Below are positions 9,708-31,023 of a stretch of 64,000 bases of DNA, in pieces (position 1 is the stretch's first letter; every line of letters starts with the position of its first letter). The DNA is from an uncultured Gammaproteobacteria bacterium (GTDB lineage Bacteria > Pseudomonadota > Gammaproteobacteria > JACCXJ01): NCBI GenBank assembly GCA_963764725.1, contig CAVXTM010000018.1, positions 64,001 through 128,000 on the forward strand, in the 5' to 3' direction. Under the pieces are notes generated by a model that had not been told where the DNA came from, ran no database searches, and saw nothing but the letters and a program-made list of their open reading frames with translations. A program made the translations under genes and the position numbers.

Positions 9708-10890
<1,183 letters not shown>

Positions 10891-11092: not shown

Positions 11093-13026
11093 ATGCCGCG
11101 CGTCTTTCTCAACTACCGCCGCGATGATAGCGAAGGCATCGCCGGGCGGATCTTCGACCGCTTGCGTGATCGCTTCGGGCCGGAGAACGTCTTCCGAGAC
11201 CTCGACACCATCGCACCCGGGGCGGCGTTCGCGAGCGTGATCGGCGAGGAGATCGCAAAGTGCGATGCGTTGATCGCCATCATCGGCAATGATTGGCTCG
11301 AAGCGAAAGATGTCGAGGGCAAGCGCAGACTCGATAGTCCCCGTGATTTCGTCCGGACCGAAATCTCCGAAGCGTTCTCCCGTAAAAAGCTCGTCATCCC
11401 CACGCTGGTCAACGGCGCACGCATGCCCGGGGCCAAAGATTTGCCAGCGGAGATTACCTTACTGGCGGAACGCAATGCGATCGACATTAGTCCCGCTCGT
11501 TTCGAGCACGATATAGAGAGATTGATACAAGGAATCGCGGGGAACGTCACGCAACCGCAACCTCATCCCGGTGGCGCTGGATCAGCGATCCGAATCATCA
11601 GCGCACGCTCGGTGTCATCGGCGCTTTCATCGCGGCACTCGCCGCCGGAGGATGGCAACTATACGTACACTTCTTCGCTGCCTCAAAACCAGTTTCACCA
11701 ACGAGCGTCTCGGTCGGAGATGGTGGTATCGCCGGAAACGTTAACACTACGGCAGGGCCGGGCGGCGTGGCGGTCACTAATACAGGGGCCAATACCACCA
11801 TCAACATCGGCGTCACGCTCAAGGAACACGAAGAGCGCCTCAAACGCCTGGAACAAGAGCTACGTGCGGAGCTCGCCAAAACCAGCGCCGCCGAGAAAGA
11901 CAGACTTGCGCTCTTGGAGAAAGAGTTGGCCGCGGCCACCGCAAAGCGAGAAACGCCAGAAGCATCGCTGGCTGAGTTTAAGGCAACGCTGGCCGAGGCG
12001 ACCCAGGTCCTAGCGAAGTTCAAGGGAGATCTGCCTGAGGACCAGTTGAAACAAGCCCAGGCAGCGCTAGCCAATGGCAACACGGCCACTGCCGAAGCGC
12101 TCTTCGGCAAGGTGCTTGAGCAGGGCAAGGCGCAAGCCACCGCCATCAACGAAAAGGCAGCGGAAGCGGCATACCAATTAGGGGAGCTTGCCTACGAACA
12201 GATCGACTACAAGAAAGCCTATGCTTATTACCGGGAGGCGGCCAAGCTCGAGCCGGACAATCCGACGTACCTCAATATGGCGGGGAGACTTTCCCAGGAG
12301 GTCGGACGATACGCCGAGGCACAGCCCTTCCTCGAAGAAGCGCTCCAGATCCGCGAGAAGGCCCTCGGCCCCGAGCATCCCGATGTGGCTCTGAGCCTCA
12401 ACAACCTGGCGGCGCTCTACGACGACCAAGGCCAGTACGAGAAGGCCGAGCCGCTTTTCAACGCGCATTCGCCATCAATGAGGTTAAAGCCCTCGGGCCG
12501 GAACAACCACCCAGCGGTGGCCACGAGCCTCAACAACCTGGCGTCGCACTATGGCGACCAAGGCCAGTACGAGAAGGCCGAGCCGCTCTATCAACGCTCA
12601 CTCGCCATCCGCGAGAAGGCGCTCGGCCCCGATCATCCCGATGTGGCTATAAGCCTCAACAACCTGGCGATGCTCTACAACACCCAAGGCCAGTACGAGA
12701 AAGCCGAGCCGCTCTATCAACGCTCGCTCGCCATCCGCGAGAAGGCGCTCGGCCCCGATCATCCCGATGTGGCCGCAAGCCTCAACAACGTGGCGGGGCT
12801 CTACAACACCCAAGGCCAGTACGGGAAGGCCGAGCCACCCTACCAACGCGCACTCCAGATCCTTCAAAAAGCTCTGCCGTCGGACCATCCTAACCTCGTT
12901 CAGGTGATGGAAAATTACTCAGCGTTACTTGCAAAACTCAACCGCGATCCGGAGGCCAAAGAATGGCAGGTTAAGGCAGACGCCGCTCGTCGGCAGCACG
13001 CAGAAAAGAACCGTGGCGCGCCATGA
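11093..13026 (+). pseudogene. TIR domain - TM helix - coiled coil - TPR repeat protein, split by one frameshift
   Basis: VFLNYRRDDS, VFRDLDTI, FVRTEI (TIR); the frame of ORF 11767 is open upstream through a TM helix; likely frameshift at G4 11539-11542; 42-aa KLC-like TPRs. Confidence 0.8.
12310..12880 (+). repeat. Tandem 126-bp TPR-coding repeats
   Basis: Recurrent AGCCTCAACAACCTGGCG / CAAGGCCAGTACGAGAAGGCCGAGCCG. Confidence 0.9.
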
Positions 13027-21958: not shown

Positions 21959-22288
21959 AGAATACGATCTATACTCTTTCGAGTCGCACGCCCCGCCTGG
22001 TACCCAGACATACCCAGACTCGCGCGTGTTTTTTTTAACGTGTGAAAAACCGAGGATCGTTTTCGAGCCGGTAATCCGACAGCGGATATTCCTTCGCTCG
22101 GGTTTTCCGAACTTCGCCATTTCGCAAAGTTTCCCGTCAGACCGTAAAACAACCCGAATTTCGTCCACTCGCAATCGGTGAGCGGCCGTATGTGGTTGCA
22201 CGGCGTATAGAGAGGGCCGGGCAAAGCACCGGAGCCACATAGCCCGCCAAATTCTCTAAACGGGCTATCCACTTAACGCAAGTCACCG

Positions 22289-23254
22289 CTATATGTTGGG
22301 GTCCGGGCTGTTGACGATTTGGCGGTAAGACACTGGCGGCGTCGCCACGGCCTGTTGCATCAGGCGGTAGAAGAGAAGCCCGCGGGAGCGAGAGGTGCGC
22401 CGGTTGAAGCGAAACGTGTATTCGTCGAGGTAGTAGTCGAGGTACCTGCCACTTACCGCGCCTTGGTGAGTTCCGAGCAGCCAGCGTTTGAGCAGAGAGG
22501 CGATGCGGTGGACACCGGGCATCAGGACATGGGCCGGGTCTCCGCTGTCGGAGAGATTCGTCTTGATGCGCGTATATCCAGACTTCGTCATGTCGTTGTA
22601 CCCGCCCCAGGCGTCGGTGAGAACTTCCGAACCGGGCTCAATGCTCTCGCGCACGAAAGGGACGAGATTGGCGCCGGAGGCGTCGGCCACACGTCTCATG
22701 CGCACGCGTCCAAATCCCTTCGGTTCGTGTAGTTCGACGGCGATGACCACAATCTCCTTTCGTTCTGCTCCACGGCCACGCTTACCGCCTTTTTCGCTGC
22801 CTCCTACGAGCGTCTCGTCCACTTCAACGCGACCATGAAGCCGCTCGCGCCCAGCTCGCACCATCGCGCGTCGCAGCTTATGCAACCAGGTCCATGCCGT
22901 TTGATAGCTTCCCAACCCCAGAACCCGCTTCAGGCCGAGAGCGTTGGCTCCATGCTTCTGACTCGTCACAAACCATATCGCCGCCAACCATGTCTTCAAC
23001 GGGATACGCGTTCGCTCGAACATCGTACCTGCCGTGACCGAGATCTCTGCACCGCAATCCCGACAATGCAGGTAACCTCGTCCCGTGATCCAGGGCGCAC
23101 CGCTGGACCCACAGCGTGGACAGTGGTAACCCGCTGGCCAGCGAAGGCCCGCAAGATACTCGCGACAGCCCGCATCGTCCTCGAAAAAATCATTGAACTC
23201 GCCGAATGTCCGAGGGTAGTCGGACCCGCCGACTGGCCCTTCCCCTGTCCCCAT
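22289..23254 (-). CDS. IS1595-family transposase
   Basis: LRWP..CPRC..CRDC zinc ribbon, VEVDET, TDAW, YLDEYTFRFNRR. Confidence 0.93.
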   Translation of the reverse strand: MGTGEGPVGGSDYPRTFGEFNDFFEDDAGCREYLAGLRWPAGYHCPRCGSSGAPWITGRGYLHCRDCGAEISVTAGTMFERTRIPLKTWLAAIWFVTSQKHGANALGLKRVLGLGSYQTAWTWLHKLRRAMVRAGRERLHGRVEVDETLVGGSEKGGKRGRGAERKEIVVIAVELHEPKGFGRVRMRRVADASGANLVPFVRESIEPGSEVLTDAWGGYNDMTKSGYTRIKTNLSDSGDPAHVLMPGVHRIASLLKRWLLGTHQGAVSGRYLDYYLDEYTFRFNRRTSRSRGLLFYRLMQQAVATPPVSYRQIVNSPDPNI

Positions 23255-23269
23255 GGGTAGCAAACACTA

Positions 23270-24523
23270 GTATAACGATTCTATAAAACATTTACTTTTA
23301 TGAGTAGCGGTGTCATCCTGGCTTCCCAGGCTTATCCATGGTCTGGGAGGGTGATGATGGCGGGAAAGACAAGGCGGGCGGCGCTGGAGGTTTCGGCAGA
23401 TGAACGCGAGAGGTTGGAGCGTTTGCGGGATTCGCGCAAGGCGCCGAAGCGGGAAGTCGAACGCGCGGCGATCCTGCTGCGCTACGCCGTGGGTGAGGGT
23501 CCGGCGGCGATCCAACAGGCGTTGGGGGTGAGCCGGCCGACTATTTACAAATGCATCGACAAGGCGCTGGCGGCCGGGGTGGACGCTGGACTGAAAGATC
23601 ACTACCACCGCCCCAAGGAGCCGCTGATTACACAGCAGGCGAAGGCGTGGGTGTTGAGATAGCGTGCACGAAGCCCACCGATCACGGCTTGGCGGCGGAG
23701 TTGTGGACGCTCTCCGCGCTCGCCCGCTATACCCGCGAGCACGCCGCTGTCGCGGGGCATGGGAGCCTGGCGCAGGCGGGCAAGGCGACGATCTGGCGCA
23801 TCCTGCACGCTGCTGAGATCAAACCCCATAAGGTGGAGTACTACCTGGAGCGCCGCGATGCGCAGTTTGAAGAGAAAATGTGCGAGGTGTTGATGGTCTA
23901 CCAGGAAGTCGCCCTTGCCAATGCCGCGCAGGCCTTGGGCGAGGACGCCGGTTCGGTCATTACCGTCAGCGTGGACGAGAAACCGGGCGTTCAGGCGATC
24001 GAGACTACCGCGCCCGATTTGCCGCCGGTGCCAGGGCAGCACGGCACCTGGAGTCGGGACCACGAGTACCAGCGCCATGGAACCCTGTCCATTCTCGCGG
24101 CCGTGGACTTGCACACCGGCGAAGTCATCGCACAAGTTCATCCGCGCCACCGTAGCCGCGAGTTCATCCTGCTGCTCAAGGAACTCGATGAGCACTACCC
24201 GAAGGCGTGCACCATTCGCGTGATCCTGGACAACCATTCAGCGCATATCTCCAAGGAAACCATGGCCTACCTCGCTTCGCGGCCCAACCGGTTCATCTAC
24301 GTCCATACGCCTAAGCACGGCTCTTGGCTGAACCTGATCGAAACCGTGTTCGGAAAAATGGCCCGTACGTTCCTCAAGGCTATACGCGTCAAGTCTCGCG
24401 AGGAACTTAAGAAGCGCATCTTGCAAGGTGTGCATGAGATGAATCTCGCCCCAGTCGTTGTGCGCTGGACGAAGTTCGATCTGGGGCTGGCATAACAGTA
24501 AGCTAATTGATGAATCGTTATAC
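23270..24523 (+). mobile_element. IS630-family element
   Basis: CTAGTATAACGATTC inverted at 23267-23281 / 24512-24526; TA duplication in a CTAG target. Confidence 0.9.
23354..24495 (+). pseudogene. IS630 transposase in two frames (shift near 23650)
   Basis: HTH half then DDE half (VDEKPG, LDNHSAH, TPKHGSWLNLIE); one base short at TGGGTGTTGAG. Confidence 0.85.
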
Positions 24524-24676
24524 TAGATGTTGTGGTGACTTGCGTCAAGTGGATAGCCCGTTTCTCTAAAACACGGCTTGATGTTACGAAGGGCTTAGTG
24601 AAGTTCTCGCGAAGCAACGCGATTCGGTCATATATCATGGCTTAAAGTCGTGTTAATCGACTCGCAGTCACTACTA

Positions 24677-24705
24677 TTGACAACAGCGTTGAGGGCGACT
24701 ACATT
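24677..24705 (+). promoter_or_regulatory. sigma70 promoter of the retron-like operon
   Basis: TTGACA(24677-24682)-17 nt-TACATT(24700-24705). Confidence 0.8.
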
Positions 24706-24714
24706 ACGCTCGGG

Positions 24715-24748
24715 CGCTGGTTATCCGGCGTACTCAGCTCTTTGACAA
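24715..24748 (+). promoter_or_regulatory. boxB-like hairpin + boxA-like antitermination motif
   Basis: CGCTGG-TTAT-CCGGCG then GCTCTTTGACAA (rrn boxA is GCTCTTTAACA). Confidence 0.5.
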
Positions 24749-24762
24749 GACGGAGCCTCAGC

Positions 24763-25051
24763 GCAAGACCTTAAGCGGTACGGATTTGTTCGTGCCGAAG
24801 TTGGGGGCTAAGCCCCCCTGAATGGCCCGCGATATCCTCGTGGGCCGCGTGCTCGAAGCACGCATGCTCCTCTCATCTCGATCTGCTCGGCATGGCAGCA
24901 CGGTAATTCGTTTGACGCCTTGAGATCAGATATGTAGGGGGCAAGAGCGCGCACATGCGCTCGCGAAATCTGAGTCACTCGGTCCACTCGGGCCTCTCTC
25001 GGGGTCTTGCCACACGGGCAAGGGGCAATTTGGCCCCTGTTCAGAGAGGTT
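24763..25051 (+). ncRNA. Putative retron msr-msd-like structured ncRNA
   Basis: GCAAGACCTT(24763-24772)/GGGGTCTTGC(25001-25010) inverted repeat enclosing hairpins at 24776-24797, 24803-24817, 24824-24846, 24847-24863, ~24865-24942 and 24945-24962. Confidence 0.72.
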
Positions 25052-25056
25052 TTGTC

Positions 25057-25284
25057 ATGAAAAGCATTGCGCTGAAGGAAGCACTGCGGCTGATCACCAA
25101 AGTGCAGACTAACCCGAGAGTAGGACCTGGCCAAGGAGATCAGTTGCAAAAGGCGAAACGAGAACTGGAGTCAATCGCACGATCCGGCAAGCTGGATAGG
25201 CAAAAAGTCTTTCTAGCTATCGAGATCGTTGCGACAGTTCTTCTAGAACTCGTTGAGGACGATGCAACCCGAAGGTCGGAGTGA
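25057..25284 (+). CDS. 75-aa helical small protein, putative retron effector
   Basis: AGAGAGG RBS, ATG 25057, GTGA coupling to the HTH gene; hydrophobic C-terminal helix VFLAIEIVATVLLELV. Confidence 0.65.
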   Translation: MKSIALKEALRLITKVQTNPRVGPGQGDQLQKAKRELESIARSGKLDRQKVFLAIEIVATVLLELVEDDATRRSE

Positions 25285-25646
25285 TTCAGAATCTAATGCA
25301 ACAAGACTACGCCAAAGCGTTCCGTATCATCCGCGCGGCCTTCGGACTCCGACAGTCCGAACTGGCCGAGCGGATGCCCATTACCGCGAGCCAGCTCTCG
25401 CTCATAGAAGCCGGGAAGCGCCAGCCGAGTCTGCGTGTAGTGAATGGTTTGGCAAACGCGGTCGGTGTGCCGGCCGCACTGATTTCCCTGCTCGCATCTA
25501 CTGCGAACGACGTTGAATCGAAACCGGACGAGGACATCTCCGACCTCGCTCGTGCGCTCCTGCGGCTCCTCGTGTCAGCGAGGGAAGAGCCTCAGCGCTC
25601 GTTCAAATTTCAGGGAGTAGGAGGTGCAACCGATCCTATCTGTTAG
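25281..25646 (+). CDS. XRE-family HTH protein
   Basis: IRAAFGLRQSELAE..SQLSLIEAGKRQPS..LANAVGV. Confidence 0.88.
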   Translation: MIQNLMQQDYAKAFRIIRAAFGLRQSELAERMPITASQLSLIEAGKRQPSLRVVNGLANAVGVPAALISLLASTANDVESKPDEDISDLARALLRLLVSAREEPQRSFKFQGVGGATDPIC

Positions 25647-26550
25647 GGATCTGGCGTCGCGACTGGGCACGCCTGCTGCTCGGCTTCGTGAAATCGCCGA
25701 CGATATTAAATCGCATTACAAGGTCTGGCCGCTGTTGGATAAAAAGAAGCATAAAGTTAGACACCTGAGGGTTCCCAGCAATGAGCTGAAGGAGATTCAG
25801 CGTCGGATAAAGAACAACATACTCGCGCCGATCACGCTCCGCGAAGGAGTGCATGGTGGAGTTCGCGGCCGATCGCCACGTTCAAACGCCACCCAGCACT
25901 TGGGTCGGCCCTGTGTGGTAAATCTCGACGTCAGGGACTTCTTCCCCAACGTTCGCCACTGCGTGGTTTACCGGTTGTTTCGGCGCGAACTCGGATTCGG
26001 CCGGGACGTAGCGAGACTCTTGACTCGACTGACCACACTCAACAGTCAGCTCCCCCAAGGCGCCCCAACAAGCACAGCCGTCGCCAACGTGCTTCTCGCG
26101 TTGCCCGTCGATGGCCCAATCTCCGTCGAGGCCGAACGCTTTGACGTCCGCTATACACGCTTTGTCAACGACATCACGTTCTCCGGTTCCAATCCGAGAC
26201 CATTGATCAACGTGGTCGGTCGAATGCTGTCGCGAAGACGATTGCCCATGTATCGGAAGAAGGCAAAGTGGCACTCGAAACCAAAGCTTAAGATCACCTC
26301 GAACTCCAAGCCTCAGGAAGTAACGGGCCTAATCGTAAATTCTAGAACAGGCCCAAGTGTCTCTCCACAACACCGAGACAATATCCGGGCTGCTATTTTC
26401 GGGCTTCGCAATACGACTGATGAAGCAGTGCTGCGCGCAGCGGCGAGTTCCATTCGCGGCAGAATCGCTTACGTTCGACAATTCAACCCCGGTTCGGCCA
26501 ACCGTATGCAGCTATGTCTGGAATCAACGCTCGCTCGGTGCGGTAAATAG
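25624..26550 (+). CDS. Retron-type reverse transcriptase with non-canonical FVND motif
   Basis: LKEIQRRI, NATQH (region X NAxxH), LDVRDFFP, LPQGAPTS, YTRFVNDITFS, VTGL (region Y). Confidence 0.9.
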   Translation: MQPILSVRDLASRLGTPAARLREIADDIKSHYKVWPLLDKKKHKVRHLRVPSNELKEIQRRIKNNILAPITLREGVHGGVRGRSPRSNATQHLGRPCVVNLDVRDFFPNVRHCVVYRLFRRELGFGRDVARLLTRLTTLNSQLPQGAPTSTAVANVLLALPVDGPISVEAERFDVRYTRFVNDITFSGSNPRPLINVVGRMLSRRRLPMYRKKAKWHSKPKLKITSNSKPQEVTGLIVNSRTGPSVSPQHRDNIRAAIFGLRNTTDEAVLRAAASSIRGRIAYVRQFNPGSANRMQLCLESTLARCGK

Positions 26551-26747
26551 GGACAGGCCACGGTTTTCTATTGAACGCGGTTGCGCTCAAACCGGCATCA
26601 GCCATGCGTCTTGGGCTCCTGTAGCGCCCAGTGCATGTGCATGAGAGCGACGGCATCGGCCCCCGGCCAAAGCCTTCAGTTGTGGGCTGTTGCTCGTGCG
26701 GCGGCTGCGGTAGTTCGGCATGTAATAACACTCATCGCAGATTCGTT

Positions 26748-27099
26748 ATGAGCCATCGGATCAACATCATTCTCGACGACGATATTTGGGAGTCTCTGCA
26801 AGCCGTTCCCAAGGGTAAGCGCAGCCCGCTCGTGAATCAGGCGATTGCCGCCTGGCTCGTCCAGAATAACCGCCGCGGCGCGCTGGGGAGGCGATGAATA
26901 CATTACGCAAGCGGGATAGACCGCTCGCCGGTGCGGCGGAGGATTGGGTGCGCGAAGACCGCGATCGGCATCGATGAGGATCGTCGTCCCCGACGCCTCA
27001 GTGTTGCTCAAATGGGGGTTCCTGCCGAACGGGAAACGTATATCGAGCCAGCGTTCGCGCTACGGGATGCGGGCAGTGCAGGCTCACATGGATCCATAG
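26748..27099 (+). pseudogene. Decayed vapBC module: frameshifted antitoxin + PIN N-terminal remnant
   Basis: MSHRINIILDDD.. continuing in a shifted frame to WVREDRDRHR*; ATGA-coupled MRIVVPDASVLLKW at 26974, truncated. Confidence 0.65.
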
Positions 27100-27126
27100 C
27101 GGGGAGAAAATGCCCGGCCCCGCTCG

Positions 27127-27984
27127 CTAGCGCTCTCCGCGAGCGCTTACGAAGGCGACCTTCACCCCCGCGTTGCTGACACCCAAGTAGCGAAGGAACA
27201 CGTACCAAAAAAGCGTAATGGCCAGCATCTCGACGGTCTCTTCAAACGCCTTGCCGAAGTGTCTGACCATGCCGAAGGCCGGCGCAGGCGCATCGTCCGC
27301 GATCCAGACTCCGGTATCAAGAAATTGGGCGATGAGTCTGTATATATTCCAGGGGTGCCCGGGCATCAGCCCTTCAATGAAATCAAGACCCACCGCGAAC
27401 GCCTGGAGGCTGAGCGCCGCGATGACAAGCCACCGTTGCCCGGCTTCCCGTAGCTCCCGCCAGAGAAACACGAATAGATACAGCCCGAGCAAGCCGAATA
27501 CCGGAACGAACAGGAGCTGCCAGGGGTAACTCGGGAAACGCTCAAATACCGATCCGGGTGCCCGGGAGAGAGCGTAAAAAGCGCTCCCTAGCCGCTCGTG
27601 GATCTGCACGCCGTCATCGATCGCCATGTAGATGAAAAGCGCGGCCACGATGGCCCAGCCGCGGCCCCTCTGTGAGGCCGAACGAGCCTGTGCCACGAAG
27701 TAGATCATAAGCGCGGTCAGCCCGGTCAGAAGCGTCTGGGTGGCCCCGAACCAAGACGCCGCGCTGTCTTCGCGGGTGATGTTGAAGAGGCGCCGCAGCG
27801 GTCCGATCGCTGCTCCTAGTCGATAGTTCATGACATAGTCGAGCAGGAGAAACGCGAGCCCGAGAAAAATGCCCATCCAAAGCACACGCCGAGCGACCCG
27901 CACGAGGTCCAACGTGAGAGCGGGGGCAGCGATAGCGTCGCTTTCAAAGGTAAAGCGCATGCCGGAGGATGACGACTTGATCAA
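27127..27984 (-). CDS. Multi-pass membrane protein of unknown function
   Basis: ~7 hydrophobic segments; DD..QIHE, EE..EM motifs. Confidence 0.7.
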   Translation of the reverse strand: MIKSSSSGMRFTFESDAIAAPALTLDLVRVARRVLWMGIFLGLAFLLLDYVMNYRLGAAIGPLRRLFNITREDSAASWFGATQTLLTGLTALMIYFVAQARSASQRGRGWAIVAALFIYMAIDDGVQIHERLGSAFYALSRAPGSVFERFPSYPWQLLFVPVFGLLGLYLFVFLWRELREAGQRWLVIAALSLQAFAVGLDFIEGLMPGHPWNIYRLIAQFLDTGVWIADDAPAPAFGMVRHFGKAFEETVEMLAITLFWYVFLRYLGVSNAGVKVAFVSARGER

Positions 27985-28205
27985 TGCAAAGCATACCGCC
28001 TCAAAGCTTCACCGCCCAACGCCACGCCATTCAGTAGCCGTTCAGCTTGGACCTGTAGAGTGTGCATTCGTACAATCGGGATGATCCTCTCCTCTCGAGT
28101 GTGCCAAGGTTAATGCATCGCCGGCGAGAGTGCATCGCGTTTTGGTCTTAGAAAACCATATCTCGCAATACGCAGCGAAGCGGGCATCGGTTCAGGAGGT
28201 TTTTA

Positions 28206-28532
28206 ATGCACGGGGTCGGTACTGGAATTCTCGAGCAAACGCCGCTAACACGTGTGCACAGACGCTTAGCGATTTTGGTTCCCATCGTCGCTTCGTTGGC
28301 CATATCGCCGTGTGTCTTCGCCGACCCCCCGTACCGGACGCCAGCACCTGGATACTACTCTAAACATCACCACTTTCATCACTTCGGCGACGACGATGAT
28401 AGTAGTGATGACGAAAGCAGCGGCCACGGGTATAGACGCTATTCTTATGATTATGATGTGCACCATCACGATCACTATTATGACGGCAATCCCTTCGACG
28501 ATGAGGCCTATGAGGTCGAATACGAATGGTAG
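28206..28532 (+). CDS. Small putatively secreted His/Asp/Tyr-rich protein
   Basis: Signal-peptide-like N-terminus then HHHFHHFGDDDDSSDD, YDYDVHHHDHYYD. Confidence 0.5.
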   Translation: MHGVGTGILEQTPLTRVHRRLAILVPIVASLAISPCVFADPPYRTPAPGYYSKHHHFHHFGDDDDSSDDESSGHGYRRYSYDYDVHHHDHYYDGNPFDDEAYEVEYEW

Positions 28533-28865
28533 TGAGCAGGGCGGAATCACTCGGTTCGCGGCCACGAGATTAGCGATCCACCGGCATTGGACTCGCCCAC
28601 CCTAGGATTTAAACACCCCGTCGCCCCCCACGGCCGCCGGTATTCAACCCAAATCCAACAGACTGCTAGGTCGAGGGCTCGGATGTTTGACAACTCACTA
28701 GCCTAGCACTACCGTGCCTATTGATTCCGGTGCGGGTGCGGAGGCTGCACGTAGGCCGACAGCCGGTCCAGCCACTCCTTATTCATCCTGGCCCCCGCCA
28801 TTGCAGCGGGACATTCTAACAGGCAGGTCAGTAACAACTATTGATCGAGGGATCGTTTAATCGCC

Positions 28866-31023
28866 ATGGAAGAGGATTTGACCATCGCGGATCTGAGCAT
28901 CGCATCAGACGCCGATTGGCACTTACCCGGGACGAAGCTTCATCGGTATCGCGTCGACAGCGTCCTCGGCCAGGGGGACTATTGGTTAACCTATTTAGCC
29001 AGTGACCTGAACCTGGGCCGCCCGGTTATTATTACCGAATACATGCCGTGCGAGATCGCCATACGCGATACGCGCGGCGTGATTCATCCTGCCGCTGCGG
29101 AGCATGGCGCGGAGTATAAGGCTGGGACTTGAGTGCTTCCTGACTGACGCGCAAAAGCTCGCCGGGATCAGGCATCAAAATATCGCCCTAGCGTTGAATG
29201 CCTTCGAAGCGAACAACAGCGCTTATATCGTCGTCGCGCACGAGCAAGGCAAGAAAGCAGAACACCTCTTTGATGGCTCAACTGTGGCGGAAAAGGAGCT
29301 TCTCGCCTTGGTATTACCGATCCTGGACGGGCTCGAAGCGATCCACGCAAGCGGCTATATTCACCGCTACATTCAGCCGTCAAACATTATTATTCGTCCA
29401 GATGGGAGCCCCGTGTTAACGGGCTTCAACCCGGGCGGCGGCGCTCTCTTCAACCCCGCTAGCACATTGACCAAGCATTTCCCATCGGACTTCGCGCCCA
29501 TCGAGCTTTGCTTTGGCGATGGCGAGCTGCATGGCCCGTGGACCGACATTTTCAGCCTTGGCGCAACGCTCTACCAGGCAGTGGTTGGCGTTGCACCGGT
29601 AGCTGCAATCGAGCGCAGTCGCATGGTCGTCCAAGGCGAAACCGATCCGCTGATGTCCGTACTGCCGGTTGGGCAGGAAAACTATAGCGATGCCTTTCTT
29701 AAAGCCATTGATCATGCCTTACGTTTTTTACCCACGCAGCGGCCGCTGACCGTTGCGGCGTGGCGCAAGGAGCTATCCGGGAACGACTCGCTCGACATCG
29801 ACTTTGTGATCCGGCCTAAATCAGAGCACGTGGTCAAGCTGCGTGATGATGTCGAGACACTACGAGCCCAGGAAGATCACAAGCGGCGCGTGGCCGAAGA
29901 GGAGCGGACCGTCAGGAAGCTTCTCGACCTCGCGCGCACCGCCATAAGCGAACACGATCTGCAGACGGCTCAGACCAGGCTCGACGAGGCCGCGGGAATC
30001 GCACCGACATCGGAAGCCGTAGCCCACCTTCGCGAGGAGCTCAAGGCGCGCGAGACCGCGGTCGTAGAGCAACGCCTCGTGAAGGAGACGCGGCACCTAC
30101 AGGCCGAAGAGACCGCGAACGAGTTAGTTACGCTTGGCCGCGATCCGACGGGCAACCAAGCACGGCCCGCCGTTGCAGGGAGGAGGGACGGGAAAATTGA
30201 GAGCATCCCGGCGTTAAATCGGTCATTACAACCAGCGGATGTTCCGGTGAACATCCCGATAATGAACGACTGGGTACGGAGCACGGTCGATCCCTCCAAT
30301 GAAACGGCGGGCGGCAGTCCCCCCGAACGGGACCTGCGACGACGGCACCGCGGCAAGTGGCTCGGATACTCTGCCGCGACCGCAGGGATAGTGGGTCTGG
30401 GACTCTCCTTGGCGTGGATGCGTCCGGGTTCGTTTGCTATCCTCTACGATGCGGCAGACGAATGGCTTTCCGGAAACCTCTTTCGTGACGAGCCAACCGA
30501 AACCCTGCCCAAGCCGGCGGCCCAAGTACCCGTACCGGGACGTGAGGATCCAGCCGGAGCGCCGCCCGTTTTCCAACCGCGCTTGGATCAGGAGCAATGG
30601 GACGCGGCTCGGACCAGGCTCGACGAGGCCGCCGTGAACGCACCGGAATCGGAAACCGTAGCCGGCCTTCGCGACGAGCTCAAGGCGCGCGAGACCAGGC
30701 AAGTAGCGATCCGAGAGGTCACCCCCTCGCGTGTTCGTGTGAGGCCGGGCGAGACCGTACGGTTTTATACCGAATATTCTCTAAGCCTTCCGGCGAGCGA
30801 CAAGGAAGCTCATGTGAAAGCCACCTGGGTGCTGCTTCGAGGCGGCCGGAAAATCGGGCGAGAAGGTATCGACAATCGATACGCAAGGGCAGGCCTCAAT
30901 ACCGCGGTAACCGAGCTGACATTACCACCCCGGACCGCATCCGGGGAATACACCGTCGAGCATCGGGTGCAGGTGGGTGATAGCTTCGATGTGGCGCACT
31001 CGCGTTTTGTCCTAGCGAGGTAG
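28866..31023 (+). pseudogene. Ser/Thr kinase-like (pseudokinase) - TM - extracytoplasmic protein, +1 frameshift at ~29121
   Basis: VLGQG..TYLA, TEYMP, HRYIQPSNI, APIE, GPWTDIFSLGATLY; ORFs 28866 and 29104 join by removing one G. Confidence 0.72.

Follow-up and report, generated by a model that had tools for sequence, protein, structure and literature searches.

Type VI retrons are the class of Mestre et al. (2020), as summarised in the preprint on the Salmonella enterica retron Sen3 (Garcia-Rodriguez et al., 2026, bioRxiv 10.64898/2026.04.27.721009). According to the same preprint, only about one in four HTH-encoding Type VI entries contains SP, and the published SP clusters are cl2075, cl2760, cl3272 and cl3897. 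The closest described systems are Sen3 itself and Vpa2 of Vibrio parahaemolyticus, also of Type VI (Zhang et al., 2025, bioRxiv 10.1101/2025.10.22.683967). The available text of the Vpa2 preprint reports that RT occurs in a complex with the HTH protein and the hybrid RNA and that phage triggers raise msDNA, by which the translation of SP is derepressed. When the RT was made catalytically dead (YADD to YAAA), defence was lost and, according to that text, the mutant was not toxic. In the corresponding text on Sen3, the HTH protein is reported to neutralise SP without RT or ncRNA and to bind the RT regardless of RT activity. The same source states that ssDNA is made constitutively and that a catalytic mutant of the RT (DD to AA) loses defence. 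In canonical retrons, by contrast, msDNA is described in the Vpa2 preprint as the antitoxin, and a dead RT should there release the toxin and be counter-selected. Ec86 (Eco1) belongs to this canonical type, in which a harmless dead RT would be unexpected.

The window studied here, that is, the whole stretch of 64,000 nucleotides that was analysed, contains a locus that, judged by its sequence, belongs to an already described kind, being a complete Type VI retron with promoter, ncRNA, SP, HTH and RT (Table 1). Among 45 RT models of PADLOC, RT_VI gave the best match to the RT (9.1e-63, profile positions 5-276 of 279), the runner-up being RT_III-A (6.4e-53). The protein was also matched by Pfam RVT_1 (1.4e-08) and by the Ec86 RT (7v9u, 4.8e-21). 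Sequence tests placed the RT in the Type VI clade and found with it the HTH gene, SP and the structured ncRNA of this class, and the order ncRNA-SP-HTH-RT is kept across 14 related loci. As in Vpa2, the ncRNA and a small toxin gene share one predicted transcript and are followed by HTH and RT, a likeness in the parts and their order. An SP with a hydrophobic C-terminal part is also common to Vpa2 and the window, and the SP-HTH-RT organisation is likewise that of Sen3.

Table 1. Features of the retron locus and of its upstream border, in window coordinates.
Feature	Position	Strand	Basis or remarks
Nested IS directly upstream of the retron	22289-24562		Pfam, inverted repeats, contig depth
Promoter with operator-like inverted repeat	24668-24705	+	-35 TTGACA at 24677-24682, 17-nt spacer, -10 TACATT at 24700-24705
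Structured ncRNA, msr-msd-like 5' part of the Type VI 'hybrid RNA'	24707-25056	+	Alignment, RNAalifold; ends approximate
SP, 75 aa, hydrophobic C-terminal segment, predicted toxin	25057-25284	+	MKSIALKEALRL...
XRE/Cro-type HTH	25296-25646	+	Alternative GTG start at 25281; Pfam, PADLOC, 14-homologue alignment
RT, retron Type VI, 308 aa	25624-26550	+	PADLOC RT_VI, Pfam RVT_1, Ec86 match
Motif A of the RT, catalytic Asp D102 (NLDVRDFF), intact	25927-25929	+	Invariant column in the homologue alignment
Motif C of the RT, F-V-N-D	26161-26172	+	A at 26167 gives AAC (N182); relatives GAC (Asp)

The elements located 5' of the RT were compared with those of the related loci. A promoter consensus scan gave 10 matches out of 12 for the -35 and -10 boxes separated by 17 nt. 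The inverted repeat GTCA-N7-TGAC (24668-24682) overlaps the -35 box, and the pattern GT[CA]-N6-9-TTGAC[AT] was present at a constant distance 5' of SP in all 14 loci, the window included. This repeat is likely a binding site for the HTH protein, by which the operon could be autoregulated. In the loci L002-L004 and L014-L024, GTCA-N7/8-TGAC overlaps the -35 box at the matching place. Upstream of SP there is an ncRNA of about 350 nt with conserved blocks in a 13-sequence alignment, for which RNAalifold predicted 37 consensus pairs; compensatory changes occur in 19 of these. Of the 37 pairs, 35 form in the window sequence and 29-37 in the other rows, and no Rfam family was found in the region 22000-30000, even at E ≤ 1.

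In each of the 14 related loci compared, a small ORF homologous to SP occupies the identical place, and neither a Pfam nor a PADLOC family matched SP. By analogy with Vpa2 and Sen3, SP is predicted to be the toxic effector. The HTH protein, predicted to act as antitoxin and repressor, was matched by Pfam HTH_31 (3.6e-11) and HTH_3 (4.7e-10) and by PADLOC HTH_VI (1.6e-17). Both in SP and in the HTH protein, the window deviates at a single column of those at least 80% conserved among the other sequences. The HTH gene overlaps the start of the RT by 23 nt. Its window copy has an extra base at 25611, which is missing in the relatives of all four metagenome runs in which relatives were found, and the resulting shift is compensated 9-11 nt later (25620-25622, where the relatives have an insertion). 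As a consequence of these compensating indels, the window protein has an unusual tail, ending in ...KFQGVGGATDPIC with the 11 aa QGVGGATDPIC (relatives end in ...KFRE), and overlaps the RT start.

The retron RT is present in one copy in its own genome. No match to it above 34% identity was found in 60 related genomes, including the unpublished G001, and the absence of a similar RT from these genomes indicates that the retron is accessory. The match in the congener G001 (E 5.5e-4, 30% identity) was rejected as an orthologue, being a different RT encoded in a 458-aa frame. Immediately 5' of the retron, an IS1595-family transposase is encoded on the minus strand at 22289-23263 (DDE_Tnp_IS1595, 2.7e-31), in an element whose end lies near 24562. 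An IS630-family copy (about 23265-24528; Pfam DDE_3, 2e-22) with the terminal inverted repeat CTAGTATAACGATTC splits this element close to that end. At about 24561 the contig depth drops from thousands to tens, and loose ends corresponding to the empty site were seen at 24522. The uninterrupted junction and the very high depth in metagenome contigs indicate that both IS are widespread and multicopy. We also considered that an IS had inserted into the retron itself. This was rejected, since the IS end lies about 115 nt before the -35 box and the contig of a relative aligns from 24562 onward. The transcription unit of the retron is therefore uninterrupted.

Other observations were made in the neighbourhood of the retron. 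Downstream of it, a Ser/Thr kinase is seemingly split over two overlapping frames (28866-31023). In the ORF at 29104-31023 the Pkinase match begins at profile position 47, and the 88-aa ORF at 28866-29132, for which there was no Pfam match, contains by eye a glycine-loop-like LGQGDY. The region 26748-27100 carries a 49-aa ORF that continues in another frame, followed by a 51-aa ORF; by eye these give the impression of a frameshifted antitoxin followed by a truncated PIN toxin; Pfam gave no family for either the 49-aa or the 51-aa ORF. Farther upstream, there is an overlap of 244 nt between two ORFs, one with a TIR domain (11093-12010) and one with TPR repeats (11767-13023), which could be either one frameshifted TIR-TPR gene of defence type or two genes. 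An IS110-family transposase (9711-10655) adjoins them.

The feature that distinguishes this retron is found in motif C of the RT. An earlier note on this DNA had read the active site as FVND, with the Asp of motif A and the PQG left intact. The frame of the RT ORF indeed gives YTRFVNDITFS, in which codons 180-183 (TTT GTC AAC GAC) read F-V-N-D with AAC as codon 182, and both of the other elements were found in the sequence, the PQG of motif B at 26053-26061. The Ec86 RT (solved structures 7v9u/7v9x) has, judged by sequence, a homologous RT fold, and its motif C aligns residue for residue with that of the window. In the HMMER alignment with 7v9u (YTRFVNDITFS against YTRYADDLTLS), N182 pairs with the first Asp of YADD, so that Ec86 has Asp where the window RT has Asn. 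Of the three Asp residues that RVT_1 competence requires, D102 and D183 are kept and the first one of the YxDD box is replaced by N182.

The same residue with the same replacement is known from HIV-1 RT. There, D185N (first Asp of YMDD) is described as a genetic ablation of RT (PMC7871456, in the part of the article available), and D185N/D186N is used as the catalytic mutant (PMC10415136, likewise). These are engineered changes in a distant RT family, from which the effect is carried over to a retron RT by analogy. On the basis of these other RTs, loss of RT activity by N182 is most likely.

The replacement was then compared with the residue present in relatives. Homologues of the RT numbered 984 at E ≤ 0.001, and the best 120 of these 984 (54-92% identity) were compared at motif C, as the earlier note had advised. 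Asp occupied the N182 column in all 120 of these listed homologues, in the variants FVDD (112), YVDD (4), FIDD (2), YLDD (1) and WVDD (1). Moreover, among the 27 columns that are invariant in the homologues, N182 was the sole mismatch of the window. As a second set, 150 representatives of clusters at 50% identity were used (33-91% identity; two also occur in the first set). Of these, 147 covered the motif, with DD in 142, DN in five and ND in none. At the nucleotide level, base 26167 was G at full depth in all 13 covering Logan contigs, which came from four metagenome runs of four studies (2, 2, 8 and 1 contigs) and derive from relatives and not from the source sample, the best run sharing 0.23 of the sampled words. 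One X2 piece that had G at 26167 differed from the window at only 9 positions in 213 nt.

As all these contigs read G at this base, one G>A step on the terminal branch of the window accounts for the codon, and the single change from FVDD proposed previously is confirmed. This Asn is a private feature of the assembly and not family variation. An alignment-based contig scan, with RFVDD among its three patterns, additionally retrieved 36 loci (a single-protein scan retrieved none). The DD present in 29 of 29 RT motifs of these loci was discarded as evidence because, RFVDD having been a search pattern, the result is circular.

Five of the 147 covering representatives (P0178, P0197, P0199, P0229 and P0250) carried Y-x-D-N, in the forms YLDN, YADN and YCDN. 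Like the window RT, these natural retron-type RTs have Asn inside the YxDD box of an otherwise well-kept protein. However, it is their second Asp that is replaced, and the change recurs across clusters, whereas the window has a singleton change that affects the first Asp. The presence of this Asn in several separate 50%-identity clusters makes it look inherited and not accidental. Regarding natural inactive or pseudogenised retron RTs, a literature search brought up engineered mutants alone, which does not prove that none is in print.

Asp-to-Asn mutants of polymerases can show altered metal use. We considered whether the FVND RT still polymerises, slowly or with another metal, so that the locus would be a hypomorph with a higher firing threshold. 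The Y-x-D-N representatives, which tolerate Asn at the neighbouring position, agree with such residual activity. Nevertheless, the Asp changed here is the first one, which was never Asn in any sequence examined, and the ablation of HIV-1 RT by D185N also argues against it. We regard residual activity as quite unlikely, and as the least probable of the explanations weighed here.

We also considered that the RT could be under general decay, and this was rejected: only one of the 27 invariant columns is changed, and the private residues are within the range of the homologues. At columns at least 65% conserved, the window RT has three private residues (Y113C, D182N and R248P), and the homologues have from 0 to 9, three homologues of similar nearest-neighbour identity also having three. 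Among the 40 of 459 differences listed by the tool, 13 fall in the RT when it is compared with the metagenome relatives, nine of them synonymous and four not. In this tool-chosen sample, such a ratio fits with long purifying selection.

The remaining parts of the retron look intact beside the private change in motif C, and this same picture could arise if the base were wrong. The A at 26167 may stem from an error in assembly, consensus or base calling, or the assembler may have chosen a minority variant; the true RT would then read FVDD and the retron would be fully functional. This explanation has a real probability, although clearly below that of a genuine substitution, since no run with the source reads was found (the best share of words being the 0.23 mentioned above). 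The change is a single transition seen in no relative and the remaining operon looks functional, both of which are expected from an error. Furthermore, six of the 120 homologues also have singleton changes at otherwise invariant columns; such changes are not unusual in data derived from metagenomes, and errors may account for some of them. It could also be speculated that the ancestral site was prone to miscalling. The ancestral motif-C codons contain GTCGAC, which the G>A destroys and which is under-represented in the genome (G000; 902 observed against 1507 expected, O/E 0.60) and perhaps methylated. However, base calling is normal at the 902 GTCGAC sites of the genome.

The quality of the assembly also speaks against an error, as it has 19 contigs and no N, and its long core genes are full length. 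Within the window, long housekeeping genes match their Pfam profiles from one end to the other (for example GIDA 1-390 of 391, FTHFS 2-556 of 556, ACR_tran 2-1020 of 1021), which argues against indel noise but has little bearing on substitution errors. In addition, the compensating indels of the HTH gene are a second private difference of the window and are unlikely to be an artefact. We take the base call to be probably real.

Differences of the type GAC to AAC were seen at 25111, 25506 and 26167, two of them sharing AACGAC and one not; at 25111 and 25506 the homologues vary between N and D. Among the six-base palindromes counted in G000, CAGCTG (O/E 0.59) and GTCGAC were the most under-represented, and this deficit may reflect past or present restriction-modification systems. 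Avoidance of a restriction site as the cause of the G>A was rejected, because the genome still contains 902 GTCGAC sites and this one could have been lost through a cost-free synonymous change.

The explanation that we favour, with moderate confidence, is that the window carries a recent loss-of-catalysis allele, by which the N182 RT disarms a Type VI retron located in a decaying, IS-rich accessory island. The private G>A would have converted FVDD into FVND, with the loss of the first metal-binding Asp of YxDD, and DNA synthesis would be abolished or nearly so. The SP toxin would be held back by the HTH protein and the RNA and not by msDNA, RT activity being needed only to fire the defence. 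An FVND RT would still bind its partners and make no DNA, which would leave the cell unharmed and the defence gone. What would then remain of the disarmed locus is SP-HTH as a toxin-antitoxin pair, together with an RT that binds RNA.

If the HTH protein and not msDNA restrains SP, the cell should tolerate a dead RT that is accompanied by an intact toxin, and we infer on this ground that the allele is not toxic. The earlier note had proposed that such an RT would fit a system whose toxin is activated and not neutralised by RT activity. The dead-RT mutants of Vpa2 and Sen3, non-toxic and defence-negative in the available texts of both preprints, agree with that proposal. The dead RT of Vpa2 was engineered, whereas the window RT has Asn naturally at the first catalytic Asp. 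Among the three origins that had been suggested for the Asn, the silenced allele is the one that fits best; a sequencing error retains the lesser probability given above, and an RT kept as a dead scaffold lacks any homologue carrying N.

In this last case, the dead RT would have been selected as a non-enzymatic part, for example as a scaffold for the RT-HTH-RNA assembly, or because it keeps SP-HTH silent as an addiction module or decoy. The complex of RT, HTH and hybrid RNA in Vpa2 and the independence of HTH-RT binding from catalysis in Sen3, both as reported in the available texts, would be consistent with it, and so would the window RT, which shows no further decay and keeps its other motifs. 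An intact frame is, however, equally expected of a very young neutral mutation. Asn at the first Asp was absent from the 120 homologues, the 147 covering representatives and the 13 metagenome contigs. As no homologue in either protein set has N, a dead-scaffold RT is without comparative support. Besides, a dead RT loses defence in Vpa2 and Sen3 according to the same texts, so that no benefit of it is known. We consider selection of the dead RT as a structural part improbable.

Equally improbable, in our opinion, is a related proposal in which the Asn allele is kept as beneficial. A retron newly arrived on a mobile island would be disarmed through the loss of RT catalysis and the risk of self-triggered abortive infection removed, the dead RT would hold the HTH protein and the hybrid RNA, and SP-HTH would stay as an addiction module. 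If this were true, inactivation of the RT first would be the typical decay route of Type VI retrons, opposite to what is expected of canonical retrons.

The observation concerns one allele from one assembly, most likely represents no new kind of enzyme, and leaves what is known of the family unchanged. If the base call is real, the locus would be a natural case of the asymmetry of Type VI retrons, in which a missense knockout of the RT stands beside an intact toxin, antitoxin and RNA, and the pair of N and D alleles would be ready-made for studies of the arming of Type VI retrons by reverse transcription.
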